Source: Psammoneis japonica
Lineage: Eukaryota
Assembly: GCA_008632985.1 (NCBI GenBank)
Contig: QPGO01000297.1
Span: 49,776-69,775 of the forward strand
Direction: 5' to 3'
Length of the DNA stretch: 20,000 nt
Below, one piece after another: positions 1 through 20,000 of the stretch (the stretch's first letter is position 1; each line of letters begins with the position of its first letter). The notes under the pieces were generated by a model. The model saw nothing but the letters and a program-made list of their open reading frames with translations, ran no database searches and was not told the DNA's origin. Both the position numbers and the translations under genes were made by a program.

Positions 1-122
1 GCGTTTCATCTCTGCGATTTTGATTTCTCCGTTGCTGAACACAGCGACCATACGCGTCGATACCTGCATCCTCAATGATCAACACCGTAAGCAAAGAAAA
101 TCCCATCAAATGAATAGGCGCA

Positions 123-2520
123 ATGTTTGAATTACTTCCAGGGTACAATGTCACGCCCATGACAGACTTAGCTATGACGCTCCCAATGTTTTCTCACGGA
201 TCTCCGCATGCACCGGACTGGAACGACGACGGAAATCTTGATTTGTGGCATCATAATCACTACTCATTCAGCGGGGATGAACAACGATGGTCAGATCCAA
301 GTACGGATAGAAAGGGTCCAGATAGTACACCTGGCGGATGCATGGTGGATTGGGACGCTGTACTGCGAGACCCTGAGAGTGGGACGTACTATGCGCAGCC
401 CCATGGTTTCATTGCGTGGAGTGATAGTGTGAGGGACTGGTGTGTGAGTCCATTTCCGTCATTTCGGTGACTACGTCGAAACTGATTATATATTGTATGT
501 GTTCATATCTCACACAATTTCTTTGACATTATTCAGTTCGATGCGCATTCGAGTGCCTTTCTTGACATTGATAACGACGGGGTGAAAGACCTATTTGTGA
601 CTACGGGAGGCGGTAAAGGCTACGGAAACTCTTTTCGATACAACAATTTGCTCTTCTGGGGAGAGAAAACAAATTCAAAGGTTGGACTGCGATTGAGGGG
701 TGGCAGAAGAGCGGCAAAGAAGGCGGGATTAGACGGCCGAAATCACAGAGGGAACGAGAGAGGTCGTCACCAATACTGGATGGATGCCAATGGCGATGGA
801 TTTTTGGATGTTGTTACACTCACAGAAGAGAATAAGGCGAACTCGATAGTGCCGGGAAAGCTCTATCAAAGCCTAAACGGAAGAAAGTTTGAGGAGGTTG
901 ATGTTCTTGGTGGAAAAGATTTCGCAGAATTCGCCGAAATGGCAATGTACGTTTCGCATTTCGTGAAGTTTGAGTCGTGTGTAACTCGTTACTTTGCCCA
1001 TTTGCTGTACTACACGCGGTTTGTTTCCAAGTCTTCTTACGCTTTTCTCTTCCTTTTTCACAAAAAGACTCACAGACATTGATGGCGATGGCTACGCTCG
1101 TGAGTAGCCCTTTTGTTCTGCAGCTGCATCTTGGAAAGCCTTCTGCAAGGTTGATCCATAGGCATCCGTCACAAACAAGACTCGCTCAACCTTTCCATTG
1201 CCCCTTTTTCGTTCTTTTCGTTTCGTTCAGGCGAGTTCCTCGTGCCTTCACACTGCAATCCGCGTCACAATAAGCACGCCTCTCATCGCCCAAACTACGT
1301 TTGTAAAAGGGCTCCTCGCGGAAGCATAAGTGTGTACAAAATGCACCCTAAAAAATCCTTAACAAGAATGGCAACTATTCCACCTCTCAGACCTTATGAC
1401 TACATCAGGTCGATCGCCACGGGGGATTGGGATAAAGATGGAATTGCTGATATTGCGATCCTGTGGTTTAAGGAAGTTCATTTTCATCTATCAACAACAA
1501 GGCTTAAAAGATGTCGACGCTCAGAGAAAGACAGAGATCGCAGAAAATGCGCTTTCATTTTGGGCACACCGAATGACATTGTCAATCTCAGCACCGTGTG
1601 TGGTAATGAAGGGGCAGCGGGCATCCGTTTCGCTGACTTCAATCTAGACGGAAAGGAGGACATGCTTGTGTACGTTAACATACGTGAAGCTTTTCCATTT
1701 CTTCTTTTCTTTTCATTTGTGCTCACCCAATCGATCAATTCATTCTCGCAGTATCTGCAAGAAGCCTGGTCTTCACCGCGTATACGAGCAGATCTCAAAG
1801 CGCAGCTGGAAAGTGCTGAAGGATGACACTGGAGAGAAAGCTGATTTTGGTGATCTAAACAATCCAAAGTTGACCACGGGTGGACCAAAGTTCTGCGACG
1901 GCGTTCCGATCTCAGTTAACAACACAGCAGAGCGTTGTAAGCCACCATTTTATGGCTCGGAAGAATGTAAAGACGTGCGATACCACCACCAGTTCGTGAT
2001 CTGCAACATGAGAGCCAAGGATAACAGAAGATCCGTTGCCAGAGCTTTCAGTCCAACAGTTGCTGACATTGATAACGATGGATATGCTGACATTATCCTT
2101 GGGTACAAATTTGGGAGTACAGTGATAGTGCGAAACACGTTGGGAGAGGTGGAACCAAATAGATTCTTTTTGGTCCGGTTGGACAGAACGGCTGGAGCAG
2201 CGGCGTCCATTGGGGCCGTAGTAACAGTACACTGCTACCGGATGGGCCCATACAGCAATGAGACGAAGACACAAATGCGTGTCCTCTCCTCCCTCAGCCA
2301 TGGAACCGATGCCGAAGGCGGTGCCGAGGATAGATTGATCTTTGGACTCGGAAAGCATGGAAGGGTTTTTAAACTCACAGTGCATTGGCCACACTGTTGC
2401 GAACCAACAGAGATTTTTCACCACAACAACACAAAGCTCCTTACTTGGAATACTTCAAGCATGATGGAGCCCTTTGAGGTATATCTACCTGAGAATTGTG
2501 ATGGTAGTTGCTGGTTATAA
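123..2520 (+). CDS. FG-GAP/VCBS repeat protein with C-terminal ASPIC/UnbV domain (CRTAC1-like). Exons 123-443, 537-946, 1068-1099, 1231-1669, 1752-2520; the true 5' end may lie further upstream
   Basis: Repeated Ca-binding FG-GAP motifs: DWNDDGNLDL, DIDNDGVKDL, DANGDGFLDV, DIDGDGY, DWDKDGIADI, DFNLDGKEDM, DIDNDGYADI. C-terminal 'SIGAVVTV...TQMRVL...RLIFGLG...LTVHWP' fits ASPIC/UnbV. GT-AG introns at 444-536, 947-1067, 1100-1230 and 1670-1751 join the ORF pieces in frame. Confidence 0.88.
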
Positions 2521-3224
2521 CGAATTCAGTCACTTGAAGAGGGCAAATATGCAAGAACGACCGCTTCAGTCACCGTCGTTTCGAGGGGCATAAGCAGGAG
2601 CTCTACACACAGTGCTGCGGGTCCGCTCTTTCTGTAAAAAATGCGCAAGGAGTGCAGTGAAATACTTTCGCAAGATAACGGAAATGCCGCATTCAACCCC
2701 AGCTGTCATTTCCCGTGTGAGAGAGGTCACAGGTTTGCATTGTGCATTACCTTTCGTCGTCTCGTTGGCAGGACGAATCCGCTCGCGTTGAATACTCAAC
2801 ATAAAATGTAAATTAAAAAAGTGGAAAATAATGAGTGTAGGTGTTCTGAGATTTGTCGACAGCAAGAAATTCTTGATGCTGTATTGCTGCGCATTGCCGT
2901 GTGCAAGAAGAATAATTACATCCACTGGCACAAGCCTGTCTCCTCCCAACCTCTGGAATGTTGTCCGGTGCAGTTGCGGCTGGTGGAACGGGCGATCGCT
3001 GTTGGTGCCCAATGGAAGAAATGTTTGATGTTGACATTCCCGCAGCATGCACATGTTTCCGATGCAGCAGCATAGAATCTATGTTTGCATGTAAACAATC
3101 TAATGAGCCAATGCAAGTGTCGCTACATAGACTGTCTCCACCTATCGTCGAATCGACACTTGTCATTGGTCGTATCTACCGTCATTTTCGGACCCCATGC
3201 ACCAGCGAAAGCTACGGTTAGAAT

Positions 3225-3435
3225 TGCGGGTCGTGACATAAAATCCCCTTGCATCATTCTTCATGCCGACAGACATATAATCACAAACAAATGCTGATCC
3301 ACTGAAACTCTCACCATTCAGAAGGGTCATAGAAAACTGCGGGTCGCCCCGTGCATCATTCTTCGCGCAGCAGACATACAATCACAAACAAACAATAATG
3401 ATCGACTGAAACTCTCACCATTCAGAAGGGTCATA
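3225..3435. repeat. Imperfect ~105-bp tandem duplication covering the last codons and 3' flank of the minus-strand gene ending at 3415
   Basis: TGCGGGTCG...TGCATCATTCTTC...CAGACATAyAATCACAAACAAA...ACTGAAACTCTCACCATTCAGAAGGGTCATAG occurs twice (~3225-3331 and ~3337-3435). Confidence 0.9.
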
Positions 3436-4397
3436 GTCGTCTTCGAAGACTGGCATCCACTCGAGCGGGAAAATGTCGGGGAGGCGAGGAATCATGGAAT
3501 CGCGTGCCTTGTGCATAAAGTTAATGCGGTTCGCCAACTGTTCTCCAAGCACCTGATCGGCCACCAAATCACGCTTGTTGAGCATTCCCTTGATGACATC
3601 CTCCAGATGATTGAATTGTGATTTGTACCAACGTTCGCTTTTTATTTGCTGATCGCATCGAAAACTTCGTATCAAAACTGCGCTCACCCGCTTCATGGGG
3701 AGCATCGTTGAGCGTTTTTTAACATCATGTCGAGAAAATAATCAGAGCACAGGGAGCAACCCCAAACGTAAGATAAACATTCTCTGCCATTGAAGGCAGA
3801 ATCAAACAAGAAAAAGTTTTGTGTGTTTTGCGCCAAGTCGAACTCGGCCAAGCGGAGCTCGATGAGGCCCGTGAAGAGACAGTGGGCCTTTGGATTGTAC
3901 TCGTCAAGACTTTTCATGCCACAGAAATCTTCGGTCCAACTCCAGGGGGCGCAGAGCGATTCCTTGACAGAGAGGTCTTCTCCATAAAATGACAGGAGGT
4001 TGGAAACACACCCTGCATGGAATGGATGCAATCGTCTCGCCTTTTCAAAGTTGGAAAGCGAATTGAAAGAATCTTGACAGCGCGGATCCTTCTCCTTGAG
4101 AGCTTTGTCATCTTGCCACATTCGGGAACCACACCGCTTTCCACATTCGCTGCACAGCTTCCCGCAATGTGTGCAAATGTTGAAGGCATTGAGCTTGCCA
4201 ATGTGCTTGACAAGTTGTTCAAAGCATGGTGCATTGTTCAACACCGTCAAAATGGCCTCGTTCCAACCTTTTGAAATGATGCGGCACTCATCATTCAACT
4301 CATGCCATGGAAAGCATCCACCTCCAATGACAAGCTCAAACACAGTGCTTGAGGAGTCTACGCAAAGGCTCTTGGCAGAAGCCGGTGGGTTCGACAT
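3415..4397 (-). pseudogene. F-box-like hypothetical protein gene with a 1-nt frameshift at an A6 run (3715-3720) and apparent Tyr-to-Cys/His erosion of its 5' half
   Basis: ORFs 3693..4463 (ATG at 4397, MSNPP) and 3415..3705 fuse if one A is added (MMLKKRSTMLPMKRV). N-terminal 'VFELVIGGGCFPWHELNDECRIISKGWNEAI' resembles an F-box. There is no Tyr in the first ~135 aa, but Tyr is present further 3'. Confidence 0.55.
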
Positions 4398-4509
4398 GGT
4401 GATGACAGGAAAAACATCTGCTTCGAATCTCTCCACACTGTGAACACGACACGCAGCACACACCGTGGGTATTTTTTTTTAGCGCAGCAACAAATGATTT
4501 AGCCTTGCA

Positions 4510-6714
4510 TGGCCCGGAGTGCTTCAGCATTGTTCACAGTTGCACCAAAACATGCAAAAATCTGCTGAACAGATCAGAAGCCTGTTCTCTGCAGCTCTTC
4601 TTTAAGTTTTCCTTTTTTGGGTTGAGATTGTGACATTCTCCCCGCTGTTTCCTTGTTGTGTCTTCTCTCTGCTGCCTTCTCTTCTGTGTGTGTGTGGCAC
4701 CAAGGGCTGGAATTTGTGTCTTTGAAAGCTTTTGGTTGGGCAGATCCAAGGAGAAACAACGGGTGCTGCTCAAATTCCCCGAGCAGCATGCTTTTGTTCT
4801 CGATCTTCGAGTCGTGCATTTTTGGGTTGCTTCCTTCCGCAAAACTGTTGGGTCATGGTTTGGCTTGCCACGATCTGTCCTCACAAGCATCTTTGTTGCA
4901 ACTGTTGGATGTCCACGGAACTTTGGGCAGAGTGCCTCCGCAATGATGTCAAACTTGGTTTCACATGTGATGGCATGTTTGCACTGCAGTGGGCAGAGAG
5001 ACAAAGATGAGCTCTGCAAAAATGTGGCTGGACTTTCAAACATTGCAACAGAAAACAATGCTGTTGCCAATGGCATGCATTGGCACAAGACTGAGTGCAG
5101 CTGCAAGCCTGCTGGAGATCCCAGTCAGTTTCGCTGTCTGCCAACAACAACAAATGTTGAAGGTCTAGAAGAAAATGGGCAGAGGTTTGGTGTGACGAGA
5201 GCAGAAATTCTGGCAGAGTTTTTGGAAACAGCCCCCCACATTCAGAGTGCAGAAAAGGCTCAGCGAGCCAAGAAGAGACAATGCATTGAAAGTGAAAATG
5301 ATGGGAACAATGTTTCTTTGGAAGAGTTGGAGACTGCAAGGCAACAAAATGCCCCCTGCACTTCAACTGCTGGGATTCAATGCAAGCAGCACACAATGCA
5401 TCTTCACGCTGATGTTGGTTTGCCCCGCAGATGTGGATGTCAAGTTGGTTGTGCAAAACAGGGCCAATGTTCTTTCTGCCATTGTCAATCATCTTCAAGG
5501 GTTCAAATCTGTTTTGCCCAACCAGGGTGACAAGAAACTTGCCATTGAGTTTGAAAAAGTGGCCACTCATCACTGTGCACTCTGCATCATGGTGTCCATT
5601 CAGTGGCAGCCCTTGGCAATCTCAAGGGTGAAAGAAGGGAGATTGAAAATGACATGAACCAGGCTCAGTGCTGTCAACACATGATTCTAGACCAAAAAAA
5701 AAGATGGTGTCACATGACACAAATTGGCAGGTGGTGCAGCAGAGACAGGTGGCTGCTCTCCTCAGCACTGGAGCCAACAAGATGAGTCAAAACTGATGCC
5801 CTTCTTTGTTTGGAATCATTGGGTGAAAAATGCTTTTGTTCAATGTGAAATCAAGAGCTGGGGGGCTTTCTGTTTGGTTGATGTGTGAAAGTGTTCACAA
5901 CAAAATCATGCTGATGCTGCTGTGTCACTGAATGCAAAGAAGATGTTGTGGCGGAAGATGATGATGACTTTGAGAAAGCAATGGAGTCATTGGGCAAATC
6001 TCAAGAACTCTCAGGTCACTTTTTCTGCATTGACGGCAGCCCATTGGATGTGTTTCTTGGGAGTCAAGTGCACACATGCATGGGCTGAAAGGCTTTTGTG
6101 TTGATGGTGGTCTGTTGCAAGAAGCCTGCCATGAAGTTACATCATGAGAAGCTTTCCAAAGAATGTCTTGAGTTTGAGAAGCGCTGCTGCAGGCAAACTC
6201 AAATGCCCTTTTGGAAGAGGCAGCTGATCTCATGAACTCAGTTGCTTGTTCCAGCCAACTCGCAGTCAGAAGTCAGAACTCTGTGTTCTCTCAAGATGGG
6301 AATGTGCTCATGAAGTTTTGCACAGATCATGACTGGGCCAGCTTTCATGATGAGATTCTTGCACAATCCAGCCATCCAAGCTGTCAGCTTCCTGCCTTTT
6401 TGCAATGAAAAGCCGGGGTCATTGCATGAGACCGCCATTGTTTGGAAGGACGAAGGTCTTGGAGTCATGCTCTTGCTTTTCACACATTGTGAGCTTGGCT
6501 TGCTCCAAGTGCTTGATGAAAAGTCGTCCAAGTGAGTCAACAACTGCGGGGAAAGAGCCAAGTGGTGCAGAGCAATGAAAAAAAAGCAGCAAAAGAGGCC
6601 CGAAGATCAGCCACCAAGAAAGATTTGGAAACAAACCCCACCTTCATGGTCAACTTCGAGTGCCACCAGGACAACAATTACAACCACGTGGTGACACAGC
6701 CACAATCACGGTAA
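4510..6714 (+). pseudogene. Decayed coding sequence of unknown identity (repeat/TE-derived or duplicated gene) inside a TpA/CpG-depleted island
   Basis: Protein-like frames (…RAEILAEFLETAPHIQSAEKAQRAKKRQ…; …EALLQANSNALLEEAADLMNS…KKAAKEARRSATKKDLE…) are broken by TGA stops at 6406, 6427, 6490, 6514 and 6517 that read well as CGA (Arg). The 290-aa ORF 4658..5530 has no Tyr. Confidence 0.55.
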
Positions 6715-9575: not shown

Positions 9576-10838
9576 TCAATAGTCTTCATAGTCTCCGTCA
9601 TCATCTTCACCTTTCTCCCTATGAAAATGCTCATCTTGAAAGCGGAACTGCTCGTATCGTCTGCTTAGATCGTCCAGTATCACCGGCCCAAGATTACCCG
9701 TGTTGAAAAGCTTCAAAAAGTTGGTGCAACGTTTCAACGTCAGTTGATCTTCTGGGAGTCTCTCGGCGTATTTGTTGGCAAATCTGACCAACACGTCGTG
9801 TACATTCTCCGTGGGCGCCTCAAGACCAATCTTTTTAACATAGCAAAAGTTCTTGTCGCGATTGAGACAAAAGAGCAAGTACTCACAAAAGGCGGTTTGT
9901 AGTGCCGGATCCGCCTTCATATTTTTGGACATTGGCAAGAGATTGGCGACACCATAACCGTACCAAGCCCCTGGACGCTCTCGAAAAAAAAATTGGGGAG
10001 GTGTCACTCCAGGTACATCGAGAAAGAATGCTCGAGGCTTTTCGCGAATCATGTATTCCGTGAGAACTCGTGTTTTGCCGGGTGTATCCTCAATCGCCGG
10101 ACCACCCGACTTTTTGAGATTTTTCTTCTTCTCCCCCACCTTTACCTTGACTTGCTTCTTGATAAGTCCTCTTGCTTTAGCATTACGGAGCAAACATTGC
10201 AACAAGCTGCTCTTGCCCGTGTTGGCAACACCAACAGTCAGTGCCGTGTTGATCCCACCCTTTGTTTCCACGTGATGCAGGAGACCATCATAGACTACAT
10301 CAAAAGCTTCCGCTTCGGATCGGTTTTGTCTCGTGTCTACAAAAATACTTCTCGAGTCTGGCCAGTTTTTATCGGTCCATCGCTCGACGCGATCTCTCGT
10401 CTTGGCATCAATCATGTCAGCGTGAGTGTAGCAGATCAAATGAAGACGGTGTTTGGCGAGACGAGTAAAAGACGGATGATGGGAGGATCCTGGTAAACGA
10501 ACATCCCGAATCTCCAGCAGGACGTTGGCCTGATAGGACTTTTTGTGGATGGACTCTAGAGCTTCAAATTCATACTTGGGCGAAGAATGCAAGTATTGTT
10601 CAAACGCGGCTCCATTCCATTGCGTAGACCAGTTTCTAGTCATGGATTCCCATTTCTTTTGTTCTTTGGCCTCAACAGTCGAACGTGACAGGGCTCGTCC
10701 TATATGATACTTGTCTTCACATTCGATCCGGGTACTAAACAGCCGAGAATATGCCGAGCGTTTCTTGAGACACCACGCGACAGGAGCTACCCGCCGCCAC
10801 GCACCTCCATTCATGATGCCGCTTGATCTGAAGATCAT
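9576..10838 (-). CDS. Circularly permuted ribosome-biogenesis GTPase, YlqF/RbgA/MTG1 family, probably mitochondrial
   Basis: Motif order DVRLP, G4-like THAD, G1 GVANTGKS, G2 PGKT, G3 DVPG is characteristic of circularly permuted GTPases. C-terminal 'FNTGNLGPVILDD' and a basic N-terminal presequence also fit. Confidence 0.9.
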   Translation of the reverse strand: MIFRSSGIMNGGAWRRVAPVAWCLKKRSAYSRLFSTRIECEDKYHIGRALSRSTVEAKEQKKWESMTRNWSTQWNGAAFEQYLHSSPKYEFEALESIHKKSYQANVLLEIRDVRLPGSSHHPSFTRLAKHRLHLICYTHADMIDAKTRDRVERWTDKNWPDSRSIFVDTRQNRSEAEAFDVVYDGLLHHVETKGGINTALTVGVANTGKSSLLQCLLRNAKARGLIKKQVKVKVGEKKKNLKKSGGPAIEDTPGKTRVLTEYMIREKPRAFFLDVPGVTPPQFFFRERPGAWYGYGVANLLPMSKNMKADPALQTAFCEYLLFCLNRDKNFCYVKKIGLEAPTENVHDVLVRFANKYAERLPEDQLTLKRCTNFLKLFNTGNLGPVILDDLSRRYEQFRFQDEHFHREKGEDDDGDYEDY

Positions 10839-10923: not shown

Positions 10924-11056
10924 CAACAATAGAACGATACCTGTCACCTGTCACTTGTCACCTAACACATTTTGGAAAATTTGATTTCTGCAAAATTCCA
11001 AAAATTGGGGGATCTTTCATGCAATCATGACGTCAGCAGGACCTCACATTTTTAAA

Positions 11057-11889
11057 GTCTGTCTGTCTCCCCTCACTCCGGCTTGCTTTCTCGACTTCCT
11101 TGCACCTTGCTTGCAATCCTTGCGGTCACAACCGCACCTTTCAAATTTTCTAATGTTAGTGAGAACACCCAAGCTCAGTTGAAAGTTGTAAGAGCTCCCA
11201 TCCACAAACCCAGCAACATGCTCAAACTCCTGCGACTCAAAGCAGTGGGGCCGTGCACGGGCGCACACATCAAAATCAAGAAGAAAACCTCCGCCCTTGG
11301 CGTTGTTGACATGGCAACAAGTGACGTGTCTGGACCAGCAGCCCAAACCAGTTGTCACTGTCACACATTTTGGGAACCATCTCCAGCAAAACCTTGCACT
11401 TTGAGTGCAGCTGTCTTCATCTGCTTCGGCGATGTCAAGCGGAACCTGGGCGCTTTGTTGCCCCCCGCCACACTGCTCCTCTGTTCACATGCTGTTGTGC
11501 TCTCCCCCCTTTGCCATCAGAGTGACAGCTCATCACCAGCGCAGGCACCCCTTGTTCGAAAACCGTGATCTTTTCTAAACTTGACAGCTGCAGATGCTCA
11601 GTTTGGTGTTGCTGCTGTCACACCACGTCACTGCGCTTCGTTTGCTCGTTGCTCGGTTGCTCGTTGCTTGCTTTGTGTTTGAGTTGTGTGCCATGTGGGC
11701 ACTGCATGGCATGAAGAAAGTGACGAAAGCACTGCGAATACGGACGTTGAAAAAAATTGCATGCATTGCTTCAGTCTGTTTTGACAAAACAGGAAATCCA
11801 ATCGTTGAAAAAATTTGCATGCATTGCACTTCGGAGTCTATTGTGCTTGACAAAAAAGGAAATCCAATGTCTGTCTGTCTCCCCTCACT
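11057..11889. mobile_element. ~790-bp insertion (11078-11868) flanked by perfect 21-bp direct repeats (probable target-site duplication), carrying a decayed minus-strand ORF fragment
   Basis: GTCTGTCTGTCTCCCCTCACT occurs at 11057-11077 and 11869-11889. The interior is TpA-depleted. The minus frame 'RFCWRWFPKCVTVTTGLGCWSRHVTCCHVNNAKGGGFLLDFDVCARARPHCFES' is Cys/His-rich. The right end has two ~60-bp tandem units. Confidence 0.7.
11746..11868. repeat. Two imperfect ~57-66-bp tandem units at the right end of the insertion
   Basis: CGTTGAAAAAAwTTGCATGCATTGC...TTGACAAAAmAGGAAATCCAAT occurs twice. Confidence 0.85.
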
Positions 11890-11979
11890 GACTCAGCGCC
11901 TCGTCACTCGTCACCGTACCATGTGCCATCTCGCATCTCGCACAAAAAAAATCAAATTTCGACAAGATTTCGATTGACC

Positions 11980-12684
11980 ATGGTGTCGTTTACTCCCTTG
12001 CACCCGTCAATAGCACTCCTTGCAGTCACAACCACCTTCTTGGGTGTCGCTCATGGTTGGTCCCACCAACCACCACGAACGGCACATTCTCGGAGAGACT
12101 TTTTCCAAGGAGGTGCCGCATTTCTCGTTGCAGCATCAACCACACTACCGCTTGCTGCCGTGGCGGCCGCAACGCCATCTGCCCAAGAGCTTGAAAAGCT
12201 TCAAAAAGGCCATGCTCGCGTTCAGTACTTGTTGGATCATTGGGATGAAGTGACACAAGTGTGTGGCACAGCCGTTATGAGTGATACGGAACGACGACAA
12301 GTCGTGCGAACCGAGGGTGGTGGAGGAACGACGGGATGTACCAAGACGCCGCTGCGAGTTCAGGAATTTATGGGTTTCAAGAGTACAGAGGATCCTCTCT
12401 TCAAGGCGGACAAGCTCATGGTTCGGGCGACGCCACTAGTGGATCCGGATGATCTAGATGGGTACTTGGATGCTGTTGAGAAGTACAAGGAAAAAGCGGA
12501 CAACACGGCTCTCATGGCGTATACATCCTCTTGGGGAGAGGCAAATCCCAATGGAGGAAAAGAAGTAATTGATGATTATCTTGAGCGAACAAAGGCGGAT
12601 GTGATTGACTCGGAAGCGTCGTTGAGGAGTGTGTTAAAGTATCTCAACCTGACGCCCTTGCCACCCATTCAAGGAAAGCTGTAG
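11980..12684 (+). CDS. Nucleus-encoded thylakoid-lumen protein of unknown function (234 aa)
   Basis: ATG at 11980. Signal peptide ends AHG|W (an ASAFAP-type aromatic +1 residue). A transit peptide, a twin-arginine SRRDF motif, a hydrophobic stretch and an AxA site follow, i.e. the tripartite targeting typical of complex plastids. The ORF is intact with host-like composition. Confidence 0.85.
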   Translation: MVSFTPLHPSIALLAVTTTFLGVAHGWSHQPPRTAHSRRDFFQGGAAFLVAASTTLPLAAVAAATPSAQELEKLQKGHARVQYLLDHWDEVTQVCGTAVMSDTERRQVVRTEGGGGTTGCTKTPLRVQEFMGFKSTEDPLFKADKLMVRATPLVDPDDLDGYLDAVEKYKEKADNTALMAYTSSWGEANPNGGKEVIDDYLERTKADVIDSEASLRSVLKYLNLTPLPPIQGKL

Positions 12685-13182: not shown

Positions 13183-14285
13183 TCATGGATCCAAGCCACC
13201 TGCTTTGGGGTGGTGAATGACGAAATGGTTGCAAACGACCTCCAACTTGTACCCCAAATCGCTGTGCATTTCCATAAACCAACTCGTCTCGTTGTATTCG
13301 AATCCACGTCGTGACCAGTTGTACTGTGGTAAACCGTGTCGATAGGCCACCACCACGTGGGGCGGTTCCAAAAAGCCTTCTTCTAGTATTGGATACGAGA
13401 ACTCGACAGTATCAAGTCGGTACCAGTTTTTGGCAAAATGATTGCCGGCACCATGATGGCCTCCGACCGCGTGAAACGGAGCCGCTTCATCCTTTTGAAC
13501 AAGTGCCAACAATTCTTGTTTGGAAATGGGCATGATGGATTGTTTTGCAAGGGCATTACCTTTTCTTGTGGACGACGTGAATGGACTCAATCGCTCAAAA
13601 GCAGGCAGCATATAGAGTGTCTTGTGTATCAGACCGTCTCGAAAGTCATGGGTGTCAAGAGCAGCCTTGAGTGAGACATATGCTGCGGCATCCGGAACAA
13701 ACTCGACATTATTAACGAACAACAGCAAGTAGTCGCTCTCGATGGAATTCATGGCCAGGTTTCTCAACTGATTCGTCGGATAGTAATCGAGGTTTGCCTC
13801 CCAAAAAGAATATGAATAGACGTTTTTGTCAATTTTTCGCCATGACTTGTTACAAAGGATTCCAGTGCTGAGATGTGATGCATGCTTTGAATAAGAATGG
13901 CACACGAGACGGGGCCTCCCCACTGTTTGATTAGATACAAGAGATTGTCGAGATTGTCCGTTGAAGCGTGTGTGACCAAAGTAATGTCGTGTTTTTGTAC
14001 CGGTCTTTTACTCGGAAAGGCGTTCGACAATTCAAGAGAAGAAGAACCTTTATCAGCAAGAGTACGAAGCATAATTTGCAGTGGCGCTCTCATTTCTCTG
14101 GGATGGACGGATCGAGACACAGGGAAAAACGTTCTCAGAATGAGCAAAAATGATATAACAGCAAGAAGCAACAGTGTGCATGCTCCTTTTGCTATTCGAA
14201 ATACTTTTGATTTGTCATTTCTTTTTGTTGTGAGAAGGAGGTTTTGTGGATGTGCAGTGTCGATGACACGAAACCTTCGCTTCAT
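13183..14285 (-). pseudogene. Glycosyltransferase family 49 (B4GAT1/LARGE-like) type II membrane protein, frameshifted at ~13803-13807
   Basis: N-terminal TM (TLLLLAVISFLLIL), then 'DITLVTHAS..L..L..QWGGPVSCAI', 'YPTNQLRNLAM', 'LYMLPAFE' and 'HFVIH'. Adding one T (HILF-WEANLDYYP) fuses ORFs 13764..14285 and 13183..13923. The DxD position reads NVE. Confidence 0.75.
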
Positions 14286-14429
14286 CGTTGTCGATGCCGC
14301 CCACCATCAAACCATCCAACGGCACCGTCCACCATCATGGTGTGGTGCGGTCGGTCGGTGCGTGAGTGCGTGCGTGCGCGGCAATTTTTTCATGTTCGTG
14401 GCCGGTTAAAGGAAAAGAGAAAAAAAGAG

Positions 14430-16500
14430 GGGAATCAACCGTTGAACACACACACACAATTGACCATGCAACCATGGCCAGAGTTGCACTGGCTTCTTTT
14501 GATCCAGGGTGGTTGCTGCAGGTGCAAAGAGTGGGGCACATTGCAGTTGCAGGAGGGTGACAATGTGGCACTGAGTGTGTGCCACCAGGCTGAGCAGCCC
14601 AGCTTGGGCATCAGCCAAGCCCTGCCAGGCCAGCTGCCCTGGCTCCAGCTGCTCTTCCCAGTGTGCGTGAGTTGTTGAAGGAGCACCACATTGACTCAAA
14701 GGCTGTGTTTTAAGTGGGGCAGAGAGAAAAACTGTTGTCTTGGCTGGTGCTTGCTTCAGACCCTGCATCATGAGCGCAAGCTCCTCTTGAGAAATGAGCG
14801 AGAATGGCCATTTTTGGCGCCTCTCTTTGGTTGCCCACTTGGCATTGCCAACAAATCTTGAACCAAACTTCACTCACAGTTTCTTCACTCTTCAACCACA
14901 AAACCAGGTTCAACTTTTTGTTGGCTTCTTTGTGGCTGGGGTCACTGTTGCAGGCACAAATGGTGGGCACATGCCATGTGGCTGCTTGGCAACAAGAGTG
15001 TGATGCCAAGCATGTGCTGCACACCAAGGAGCCAAGCAGCCCAGCCCAGCTTTGAATGGAGCCCCAGGACAGCAGCCAACTCTGGGTGATCTCAGCATGG
15101 TGTGCTTGTTTGGGCTGTGCTGCACTCACCCCACAGTGCTCTGTGTTGTGGTGGCTTGTTGTGCAAGCCGTGTGGCTGAAGAGCCAGCAGCCAGCCAGGG
15201 CCCATCTTGCAAAGGCCACAAATGTTGACCCTGTGCAAAGCTGTGTGAGGGGGCAGGCACAGGGATTTGCAATGATGGCTTCACAGCCATTGGCCCCAAG
15301 TTGGCATTTGATTGGGATCCAGTGCTGAGGGGCTGTGAAGTGTGGGGTTGGGAGCCCAGCCAGCTCGCACTCTCTTTGTTGTCACAAAGTGCTGCCACAG
15401 CTGTCTTTGCATTGCAGCCAGCCAGGTGCGGTTGACCCCAAGTTGGCACTTGATTTGGAGTGACTGCCAAGGAGCTGTGAAGTGTGGGGTTGGGCAGTCC
15501 AGCCAGCTCACACTCTTTGCTGACAGCAGAAAGCACTGTCGCAGCTGTCCTTGCGCACACATGGCCAGAGCAGCCTTGGCACATCCTGCTGACAAAACTG
15601 ACAAAGACAGCGACTCTTGTGGTTGAGCCACTCAGCACGCAGGAGATCTGGGCACACTCCTGGGAAGTCAAACAGGAAGGAGGGCTGAGCATTGCCGCCA
15701 GTGCCAGGCACAAATGTCAGCTTGTCTTGAGAGAGATTCGAGCCCACACAGCCCCGCGTTGGGCATCTTTGCTGGCAAAATGGAAAGCATTCTTGAGCAC
15801 ATTCTGGCATGTGGGCAGCACTGTCACCAAGAGGGCTGCTCTGCAGAGGAAGAGGGAAATGGGCAACAACATTTTGCAAGAACTGTTTTGTGTCAATGGT
15901 CGGGTGGGATGTGGCAGCATCATCTGGACTTTGATGGAGCATTTGGCGGACAAAGCTTGAGCACAGAGAGTTGTCCACTCAAGCTCCACAAGTGGCACTT
16001 TCCAAAGGTGACACCACACATGGGCCATGTGTTCATGCATCAACATGCCTCAAGCTGCAAGTCACACAAAAAAACCACCACCAACCTTTCAGCCAACCAC
16101 CATCATGGACAGAACAGGTCAAGAGGTTCAAAACAAGAGCGATTCATTGACTCTCTTCTGGTTCCATGCATTCAAGAGCTTCTTGTCCTTCTCAAATGTT
16201 TGTTGTGCATTGTTGTCTCTTTTAATTCAAGTGCAAAGAGGAGTCACTTTTCTTGTTTCCATCTCTTGAGATGTTGTTGGTTGTTGAGTGATGCAACTTT
16301 TGTTGTCACATTTTTGGAAATGTTGGCAAACCCGATCACTGCTTGATTGTCAACCCATTTGCTGTTTTAAGTCTCCATGGCATAAAATGCCATAATTCCA
16401 GAGCCCTCAATTGTTTCATCAAACGCAGTGCTTTGAAACACGTCCAACATCAACTCGACTCAGTTGAAATCCCAGTTTGTGGGCGATGAAAAATCACGAA
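14430..16500 (-). mobile_element. Heavily mutated retrotransposon relic, tentatively DIRS/Ngaro-like (end of RNase H region plus N-terminus of tyrosine recombinase ORF)
   Basis: Minus-strand fragments 'DTKQFLQNVVAHFPLPLQSS', 'FDFPGVCPDLL', 'RVAVFVSFVSRMCQG...ARTAATVLSAVSKECELAGLPNPTL' resemble, from memory, diatom DIRS-type RNH C-termini and YR N-termini. TpA and CpG are strongly depleted and there are many frame breaks. No catalytic YR motifs were recognised. Confidence 0.45.
15294..15554. repeat. Diverged internal direct repeat (~117-bp units, period ~142 bp) within the relic
   Basis: CCCCAAGTTGGCAyTTGATT...GCTGTGAAGTGTGGGGTTGGG...CCAGCCAGCTCrCACTCT...CAGCTGTCyTTGC occurs at 15294-15410 and 15436-15554. 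Confidence 0.85.
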
Positions 16501-16799
16501 TGTCAAACAAATGGCTACTTTCGACATCAAGATCCCCGAGTTCAATCCAAATGTGACGGTACGCCTCACAGCTTATGGCCATGACACATACAAGCATGCC
16601 TCATTGTCATCGCGTCGAGCACTCGTATCGAAAATGCCGATAGATCAAAGTTCAGGAAAAGGATGGAATACAAATTCATTTGTGAATTCATTAGTGGCAT
16701 TGGCGTAATGATATTTACGGCAGAAGCAATCTAAAATCCTTATTCATCATTGACATTTCTGTATTGCTCAGATTTTGAAATCTGACCACTACCGTTAAG

Positions 16800-16932
16800 C
16801 ATTTAGCTGTCTTTGTATGGAAGTGGAAATGACACTTAACGATTTACACTAACCATTTAGCTTTCTTTGTGTCGAAGTGGAAATGACACTTAACGATTTA
16901 CACTAACCATTTAGCTTACTTTGGCTCGAAGT
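16800..16932. repeat. 54-bp tandem repeat, about 2.5 copies
   Basis: CATTTAGCT..CTTTG....GAAGT starts at 16800, 16854 and 16908; the first two copies continue GGAAATGACACTTAACGATTTACACTAAC. Confidence 0.92.
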
Positions 16933-17219
16933 CAGACAAAGAGATTGGGCTATGGGCTTGTCGTTAACCAGCCACGAGCATGAAATCTTTACCGCGTGCG
17001 CTTGCATGCACGCATGCCATGATTTGGAGTCGTTGGAAAGTACAAGGAGCTATGATGCATACGCTTCCGCGCGTTCCACTCGCGTCAATGTGGCCTACGC
17101 GGAACAATACGAACAATCCAGTATGTAGAATCCTACATGCGACATGGGGGCTTGGCGATCGATCGTGCTGAGCGGCCAGACCATATTTTTTCTGCAGCAA
17201 CCAGCAACACGAACACACC

Positions 17220-19543: not shown

Positions 19544-20000
19544 CTATTCTTCGCGAGCTCTCTTGACTCCTCTTTTTTCGTCTCGTTTCTTGACAAAGTT
19601 CGGGTTGTGCTGCAAGAACCAAAACATAAAGTTATCGTCACTTTGACGACCAGCCAAGACGTGCGGCCAAAGAGCATCAGGAATTACATTTTCTCGGCGC
19701 AGCAAGTGTCGTCCGGCACGGTTCATTTTGCAGTAGCAGTCCATTTCGTCTTGGTTATCGTCACGTTTGACGACTATCGTCACTTTGACGACCAGCCAAC
19801 ACGCGCGGCCAACGAGCATCAGGAACTCCATCATCTCGGCGCAGCAAGCGTCGTCCGGCACCGTACATTCCGCGGTAGTAGTCCGTTTTGGGCATGGTCA
19901 CCCTTTCAATCGAATACGAAGCCTTCCCGATTTCTTCGGGCGAAATAGTGAGTGCAGAACAACCATTCAAATAGAGAGTTTTGAGGTTCGGTAGCGATAG
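19544..20000 (-). CDS. 3' end of a leucine-rich-repeat protein gene (continues beyond the window), with a duplicated C-terminal module and a frameshift; possibly a pseudogene
   Basis: Frame from the window end reads LSLPNLKTLYLNGCSALT (an LRR). It is followed by 'DYYRGMYGAGRRLL...VPDARWPRVLA' and a second copy 'DCYCKMNRAGRHLL...IPDALWPHVLA...FMFWFLQHNP', a C-terminal cap typical of diatom LRR families. Confidence 0.7.
19633..19888. repeat. ~114-bp direct repeat (period 142 bp, ~87% identical) with a short partial copy between
   Basis: TATCGTCACTTTGACGACCAGCCAA...CTCGGCGCAGCAAG.GTCGTCCGGCAC starts at 19633 and 19775; partial copy TATCGTCACGTTTGACGAC at ~19756. Confidence 0.9.

Follow-up and report, generated by a model that had tools for sequence, protein, structure and literature searches.

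Where does an erased stretch of a genome end, and what happens to the gene that stands at its edge? The question is posed by a window of 20,000 nucleotides from Psammoneis japonica (Eukaryota; assembly GCA_008632985.1, contig QPGO01000297.1, positions 49,776 to 69,775 of the forward strand). By "the window" we mean that whole stretch, and positions are counted from its first letter. In it a gene read on the minus strand lies with its 5′ end towards an island (island 1) from which the dinucleotide TA has almost gone. The original prediction, made from the letters of the sequence, was that a TpA-mutating activity had spilled out of this island into the gene and had replaced Tyr by Cys and His along a gradient, in the manner of leakage from repeat-induced point mutation (RIP). 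What we found is a directional loss of TA in favor of TG and CA that runs through much of the gene, affects both strands alike, changes amino acids and stops at a sharp edge. A gradient is not established by the data.

TA erasure inside the gene

Our unit is the single TA, TG or CA step, and our measure of erasure is the fraction TA/(TA+TG+CA). The window looks eukaryotic, with many genes, and TA falls below expectation throughout (rho 0.4-0.9); six of its other genes have TA fractions of 0.19-0.22. Three blocks have next to no TA. They lie at ~3780-6680, 10964-12275 and 14203-16365, with rho of 0.0-0.15 for TA and of 1.5-2.2 for TG and CA. Erasure is confined to these regions, the TA fraction at the six fitted block edges being 0.004-0.05 inside and 0.18-0.27 outside.

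The first block takes in a tract of the gene (coordinates are collected in Table 1) in which 2 of 108 steps are TA, the rest being 49 TG and 57 CA. The distal gene, 3415-3779, has 10 TA in 65 (Fisher P = 0.001). Taken over 3780-4465 the count is 3 of 130 (P = 1.6e-9 for an assumed rate of 0.2), while both TG and CA stand high (rho 1.4-1.6). The part of the tract from which TA is missing altogether contains the changed codons for residues 28, 32, 60, 82, 124 and 125.

The protein bears the mark as well. Residues 1-137 hold no Tyr and the first Tyr is residue 138; the chance of finding none in 137 residues is 0.007 at the background rate of the window (65 Tyr in 1814 amino acids) and 0.012 at the rate of the protein's own family for this block (66 in 1824). 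Of the 16 members compared over this stretch, all but the window protein have Tyr, between 1 and 8 of them. The 5′ half is thus as poor in Tyr as had been said (about 135 residues without one), and all six distal Tyr motifs named with it are present.

Other copies in the same sample

For copy depth, contigs from three runs of one sample were aligned to the window. The single-copy baseline is ~61, and contigs with the window's own sequence lie at a depth of 56-68. Over 3785-4400 there are, besides, two or three diverged extra contigs, each at a depth of 50-63 and 80-90% alike. The comparison with the window gave 723 differences; what we say of them concerns the best 40 by support, 37 of which fall within 3863-4304.

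At seven of them TA in another copy corresponds to TG (4024, 4028, 4152 and 4304) or CA (3968, 4153 and 4220) in the window, and at none is the direction reversed. CG is less one-sided: seven times another copy has CG and the window TG or CA, and three times it is the other way round. The codon changes in the TA cases are Y32H, K60E, Y82C, Y124H, L125P and I144V, with TAT in one other copy both for C82 and for H124; those in the CG cases include V40I, V41I, S50L, E64K, D112N and V179I. It is the window copy that is derived, because two copies share TA at 4304 and three share CG at 4233. Among the sites that can be polarized, TA has been lost at 7 of 9 and CG at about 7 of 21-24; loss of TA outpaces CpG decay. 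The seven TA losses came out as four TG and three CA, so that both strands were hit about equally. A runs test gives z = 0.26, and across the tract and the three islands z lies between -0.6 and 0.5. We had also entertained a strand-patch idea, in which TG alone or CA alone would persist over long runs; the runs tests rejected it. And since the other copies kept their TA, duplication alone is not the trigger of erasure.

Two observations on the copies stand by themselves. Copy B of 3785-4400 (X2 record 9) may itself be a decaying copy. Over 1-4669 of the window the sample holds extra diverged copies, with a summed depth of 80-490 against ~61, and TA there is normal except at 3780-4358.

Tyr, Cys and His against the family

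The second comparison is with the homologs of the gene, aligned by L-INS-i. We called a column Tyr-rich if at least 30% of at least 5 homologs have Tyr there, which gave ten columns, and one row was left out as an alignment artefact (second-frame residue 14, upstream of the break, which fell on the column of the Tyr at residue 138). In the tract the window protein has Cys or His at four of five Tyr-rich columns, and in the distal part at none of five (Fisher P = 0.048). Counted by cells, the 17 homologs have Cys or His at 9 of 135 Tyr-rich positions (0-2 each) and the window protein at 4 of 9 (P = 0.002).

The four are instructive individually. At the place of C28 (TGC), Tyr is found in 8 of 12 homologs. 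H32 (CAT) faces Tyr in 10 of 14 and His in 3, and two other copies in the sample have TAT. H65 (CAC) faces Tyr in 5 of 15, and H77 (CAT) in 5 of 16; because another copy has Trp at the last of these, H77 is not a simple change from Tyr. At the fifth tract column the window has Phe, and at the five distal columns Tyr, Glu, Phe, Phe and Tyr. Family members, in short, keep Tyr at several sites where the window has His or Cys.

The motifs singled out beforehand as Cys or His in the place of Tyr fared unevenly. GGCFPW holds up through C28, as does the first His of LHPFHAG (H124, with TAT in one other copy). APCFEQ and PRCQDS do not: at C58 none of 13 homologs has Tyr, and at C107 none of 15. The second His of LHPFHAG, H127, is a conserved His found in 15 of 16. 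The distal half of the protein is rich in Cys as well (7 in 99 residues), so Cys content by itself tells us little. That the process mutates a neighboring gene was nonetheless a sound expectation, for the changes alter amino acids.

A block with a sharp edge

The original prediction expected erasure to thin out with distance from ~4500. The fits do not bear this out. A single step at 3775 (support within 2 lnL, log-likelihood units, spanning 3775-4015) fits with lnL -158.8, a linear ramp with -159.4, and an exponential decay of free origin with -159.2, the last collapsing to the step at 3775. Exponential decay from 4500 reaches -161.3 with its length constant at the limit of the grid, and a step forced at 4500, which would mean no spill-over at all, -167.6. 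Within the tract, 3780-3985 has 2 TA in 31 and 3986-4358 has 0 in 77 (P = 0.08). Between the tract and the island there is a patch that keeps TA, at 4359, 4470, 4480 and 4500, which at the island's rate of 0.01 has P = 0.0002. What the data show is a block with a sharp distal edge plus a less-mutated patch, and not a monotonic gradient; a step describes the profile as well as or better than a decay from 4500.

How far does the erasure reach? The estimate had been about 0.5 kb past a repeat; TA is erased for ~0.6-0.7 kb into the gene. Island 1 is about single-copy (summed depth 72-108 against ~61), and the name of repeat is unsupported for it.

Other islands and other gene edges

The three islands show no kinship to each other when the window is compared with itself by blastn. 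The fraction of CG is 0.04-0.05 in the cores of blocks 1 and 3, against 0.21-0.31 in genes; block 2, at 0.19, is only mildly depleted. At three of the four edges of islands 1 and 3 the TA-erased zone extends beyond the CG-poor one.

In island 1, seven long frames gave nothing in Pfam at E<=1, a look for terminal repeats found none, and there is no recognizable transposon feature. A tblastn search of the family against the window turned up no hidden copy of the gene in the islands, and island 1 has no look-alike among the other DNA windows compared. Island 2 has divergent genes on either side, one for a GTPase, which ends at 10838, and one that begins near 11980, and four of its long frames likewise gave nothing in Pfam at E<=1. 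Into the second of these genes (plus strand, 11980-12684) it extends ~300 bp from the 5′ side, and TA there is 4 of 60 (P = 0.004). The island may be a younger erased block.

The third block allows a cleaner test of spill-over, because the limits of the repeat at its heart are set independently of TA. The unique contig ends at the repeat boundary, 14380, and contig joints link 16993 back to 14380, which suggests a tandem or circular arrangement elsewhere. The unique flank on the far side of that boundary is free of TA; it takes in the opening 27 codons of a glycosyltransferase-49 gene (start 14285, minus strand) and the DNA upstream of them. Inside the repeat, TA is 3 of 458 over 14380-16365 and returns at 16365, 630 bp within the unit; 16366-16994 has 33 of 132 despite about 60-100 copies. 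Most of the depth of the repeat agrees with the window's TA-free state; the loss of TA seems either to have come before the family multiplied or not to have hindered it. Elsewhere, a bin at ~8x the baseline depth (668-1334) has normal TA. Position outweighs copy number here: erasure does not require many copies, nor do many copies suffice for it. In four genes of the window the 5′ end is turned towards an erased block; three are partly erased, and the exception is the GTPase gene, which keeps its TA.

TA-normal DNA of the window also contains short tandem duplications at 16796-16932 (54-bp period, 92% identity) and 19633-19888 (142-bp period, 87%). Several contig joints bypass parts of the latter.

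Weighing the explanations

Our proposal is of a process at the level of DNA that would turn TpA into TpG or CpA on either strand, accompanied by a slower decay of CpG. It would act in place, on a chromosomal block larger than island 1, and this block would continue for ~0.6-0.7 kb, through the first two thirds of the gene copy, before ending abruptly at ~3775-3985. The target would be positional, a domain resembling silent chromatin; and because the edge of such a domain would ignore the limits of genes and repeats, gene parts within ~0.2-0.7 kb of an erased block would be rewritten. For this gene the outcome is a set of replacements at conserved positions: Tyr>His, Tyr>Cys, Leu>Pro, Lys>Glu and Ile>Val. 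The sequences show directly which way the change runs, that it is specific to TpA and symmetrical between the strands, that its edges are sharp and that it alters the protein. That the state of the chromatin determines the domain, and that the chemistry is the deamination of adenine, as proposed for Bigelowiella, we infer.

Mutation of the DNA in place, whether by positional spread or by direct targeting of the gene, we regard as highly probable. The change is directional against copies in the same sample, both strands are hit, and the tract ends inside a gene that is colinear with its family. The same two last facts, strand symmetry and a tract that stops within a colinear gene, fit poorly with editing of a single-stranded RNA or cDNA intermediate of a retroelement, as the original prediction had argued. 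For positional spread from the block into the gene in particular, we would put the chances somewhat above even.

Its nearest competitor also involves mutation in place. The gene copy, a recent duplicate and maybe a pseudogene, could itself have been the target, in which case nothing leaked and two targeted blocks merely adjoin. The two or three extra copies span 3785-4400, which is nearly the tract; the patch that keeps TA parts the tract from the island; the gene has a frame break at 3715-3720; and decay fits no better than a sharp step. Yet those other copies kept TA at seven of seven sites; erasure has struck single-copy DNA and passed over segments of far higher copy number; and the gene's C-terminal part has copies too (3433-3505, up to 3641) with its TA in place. 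Nor need the frame be broken, as a 59-nt GT..AG interval could rescue it. We think this explanation possible, but on balance doubtful. A sharp block without any local mutation could also have been acquired by gene conversion from a copy already erased elsewhere, and the abrupt limits of the tract on either side, together with the presence of several copies, would suit that idea; but at the sites considered a single contig, at single-copy depth (63.7-68.1 against ~61), carries the window's state, every other copy observed departs from it, and no donor is visible in the sample, so that we hold conversion to be very improbable.

We think less still of ADAR-like editing of RNA (or cDNA) followed by reverse transcription and insertion, which would make the tract a retro-copy. 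The change from T-A to T-G does fit the 5′ U preference of ADAR, as cited in bioRxiv 10.64898/2026.01.13.699255. The tract, however, ends inside a gene colinear with the family on both sides, the strands are hit equally and interleaved, the unique flank of the repeat is erased as well, and around 3780-4358 no target-site duplications or poly-A tail are visible. As for chance, codon usage or selection against TA in the 5′ half of the gene, TA is low window-wide (rho 0.4-0.9) and the protein is Cys-rich overall; against this stand the significance of the tract (P = 1.6e-9), the seven-to-none direction of the copy differences and the Tyr that the family keeps at the window's His and Cys sites. 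Comparison with the other copies and the family refutes it, and we allow it almost nothing.

Several things weigh against positional spread, and we set them down together. The 145 bp next to the island are the least mutated (4 of 30 against 2 of 108, Fisher P = 0.02), and with the nearest DNA keeping its TA a simple decay from the island is poorly matched. The distal edge at 3775 meets the end of copy similarity (3785, 3828) and of the family domain (~3777), a coincidence also expected if homology defined the target. The label of "repeat" is unsupported for island 1, it being about single-copy and without transposon features. The other copies are visible only through the best 40 of 723 differences, and may be paralogs, homeologs or diverged alleles alike; copy B has TGA at residue 92 (CGA in the window) and 36 gaps, and is thus no pristine reference. 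CG speaks for positional spread, if faintly: its fraction is 23/78 in 3415-3779, 15/61 (near normal) in 3780-4100, 10/77 in 4101-4400 and 20/431 in the island, an index partly deflated by the added TG and CA. It is somewhat low only in the part of the gene near the island (10/77 in 4101-4400 against 38/139 farther away, Fisher P = 0.017), and counted per base CG is 10 in 300 bp over 4101-4400 against 5-6 in 100 bp in other genes. The nested CG pattern is a hint, and we treat it as one.

The gene and its protein family

What is this gene? It belongs to a protein family without a name, with a weakly F-box-like N terminus, a Cys cluster and a helical C-terminal domain. When 1.84 billion representatives were scanned with HMMER, 18 relatives came up at E<=0.001. 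Five reach E<=1e-10, and the closest has 1.9e-28 with 41% identity; a word search for homologs of near length yielded 75 candidates and none at E<=0.001. The family opens with the motif G-Y-L-P-W-Y-E-L ... V-S-K-x-W, continues through the Cys cluster and an F-H-x-x-C-V-x-N-L-L-S-F-Y block, and closes with F-P-L-x-W-M-P. P0013 (842 amino acids, matching in five short stretches) was excluded from all alignments.

Family proteins placed by tblastn match 4397-3777 in one frame and 3639-3421 in another, so the order of the gene follows that of its family, with a break in frame close to an A6 run, where one more A would join the two frames. Alternatively, removal of a 59-nt GT..AG interval at 3723-3665 would repair the frame, on frame arithmetic and local translation. 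From its sequence the gene copy may be a pseudogene or a silent duplicate. The last codons of the gene and its 3′ flank form a tandem duplication at 3245-3436 (87% over ~90 bp); TA is kept in both copies of it, and one difference between them is TA against CA.

The description "F-box-like", which the gene had been given at the outset, is a weak lead. Pfam returned no family for the window protein, and none for the C-terminal frame at E<=1. In a test with PF12937 and PF00646, F-box-like matched 2 of the 18 members with a best E of 0.034 and F-box 1 of 18 at 0.047, short of the threshold. An AlphaFold (AF2) model of the homolog P0001 has a predicted local distance difference test (pLDDT) score of 76 overall, with N-terminal helices at 20-26, 32-41 and 43-52 (pLDDT 53-75) and a C-terminal helical domain at about 90. 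Foldseek with the whole P0001 model found no match in the Protein Data Bank (PDB) at E<=0.001, and a profile search of PDB sequences with the family found none at E<=1. Pattern scans of viral contigs with P0001, P0010 and P0007, which detect close relatives only, gave no relative. The nearest clusters in the Protein Atlas are giant-virus hypothetical proteins at 0.91, below the level of recognition and a lead only. A scan of metagenome contigs with the window protein gave 32 pattern matches and no relative; a metagenome scan with P0011 gave two loci (L001 and L002), weak and unrelated, which we did not use.

Table 1 Coordinates of the features discussed, in window positions
Feature	Position	Strand	Remarks
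Gene (protein family without a name)	3415..4397	minus	18 homologs; placed by tblastn
Frame A	4397-3696	minus	Met at 4397
Second frame, C terminus	3741-3415	minus	Open frame
A6 run at frame break	3715..3720	minus	One extra A would join both frames
TA-erased tract, residues 14-206	3780..4358		TA 2/108
Fully TA-free stretch, 373 bp	3986..4358		TA 0/77
TA-keeping patch between tract and island, first 13 codons and upstream	4359..4503		TA 4/30
Island 1, TG/CA-rich, CG-poor	4504..6680		TA 4/431 and CG fraction 0.05 in 4600-6600
Island 2, single-copy, TA-poor	10964..12275		TA 12/251; CG 0.187; depth 61-82
TA-free unique flank, 177 bp	14203..14379		TA 0/35 (P = 6e-4); CG normal, 16/51
Repeat unit, ~2.6 kb, roughly 100 copies	14380..16994		Summed depth ~7000 against ~60

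Known systems and significance

The closest parallel comes from Bigelowiella natans, in which mutation-accumulation lines revealed in-place change of TpA to TpG or CpA in DNA of giant viruses and virophages that had integrated (Mettrop et al., bioRxiv 10.64898/2026.01.13.699255). Adenine deamination is proposed there as the chemistry, with ADAT2/3-like polynucleotide adenosine deaminases as candidates, and new mutations arise in clonal growth at ~1e-7 to 1e-6 per site per generation. The likeness is close: TpA goes only to TpG or CpA, on either strand, regionally and in place on the chromosome, and the long-term signature is low TpA with high TpG plus CpA. There are differences. The lineage is another one; the targets here go beyond viral DNA to include a cellular-looking gene copy and a unique flank; erasure is near-complete, with 0-2% of sites left against a rho TpA of 0.45 in Bigelowiella; and CpG is depleted along with TpA in the island cores. 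Diatoms, flanks and boundaries are not mentioned in the text of the preprint, which was the sole paper with this signature in our literature search; that search found no description of TpA erasure in diatoms.

CpG decay is the more familiar process. It follows from deamination of 5-methylcytosine in methylated repeats and yields no change of TA to TG or CA. The CG>TG/CA losses that go with TA loss in the islands, and to a lesser degree in the gene (seven against three among the differences considered), resemble it. RIP, for its part, depends on fungal machinery (RID), and its C:G>T:A transitions mainly convert CpA to TpA. Here TpA is lost and not gained: the chemistry is the opposite.

The likeness to RIP lies elsewhere, in leakage. 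Leakage follows a distance gradient in Leptosphaeria maculans and has a reach of at least 930 bp in Neurospora crassa (PMC2973834). There as here a mutator associated with repeats or heterochromatin alters adjacent genes over hundreds of bases and changes their amino acids, and there as here the alternative that the gene itself was duplicated needed excluding. The reach is comparable too, at 0.18 kb for the glycosyltransferase-49 flank and ~0.7 kb for our gene; the profile, set against the gradient documented for RIP, is non-monotonic. On duplication, the trigger of RIP, the locus points both ways. The gene has two or three extra copies, but single-copy DNA is erased and 16366-16994, with ~60-100 copies, is spared.

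We take the locus to be a real and informative case in which a mutational process described only recently extends into host genes, and the core of the original prediction, Cys or His in the place of Tyr, is verified at several sites. A fuller picture we can offer only tentatively, at somewhat less than even odds. A chromatin-guided mutator would deaminate adenine in TpA on both strands; its sharp-edged domains would run past the silenced element by a nucleosome or a few, routinely rewriting the promoter-proximal coding parts of adjacent genes (Tyr to His or Cys, Ile to Val, Lys to Glu) and so inactivating or diversifying them. It would be a counterpart of RIP leakage not described so far.

If the process is positional and does overshoot in this way, it would do more than kill mobile DNA: it would supply host genes in its vicinity with mutations that change amino acids, with a role like that of RIP leakage for the effector genes of fungi. 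The locus also constrains the mechanism, which would have to work on double-stranded chromosomal DNA, treat the strands symmetrically and leave edges sharp to within ~100-200 bp. These constraints amount to concrete predictions about methylation, histone marks and mutation accumulation in an alga that can be grown in culture.

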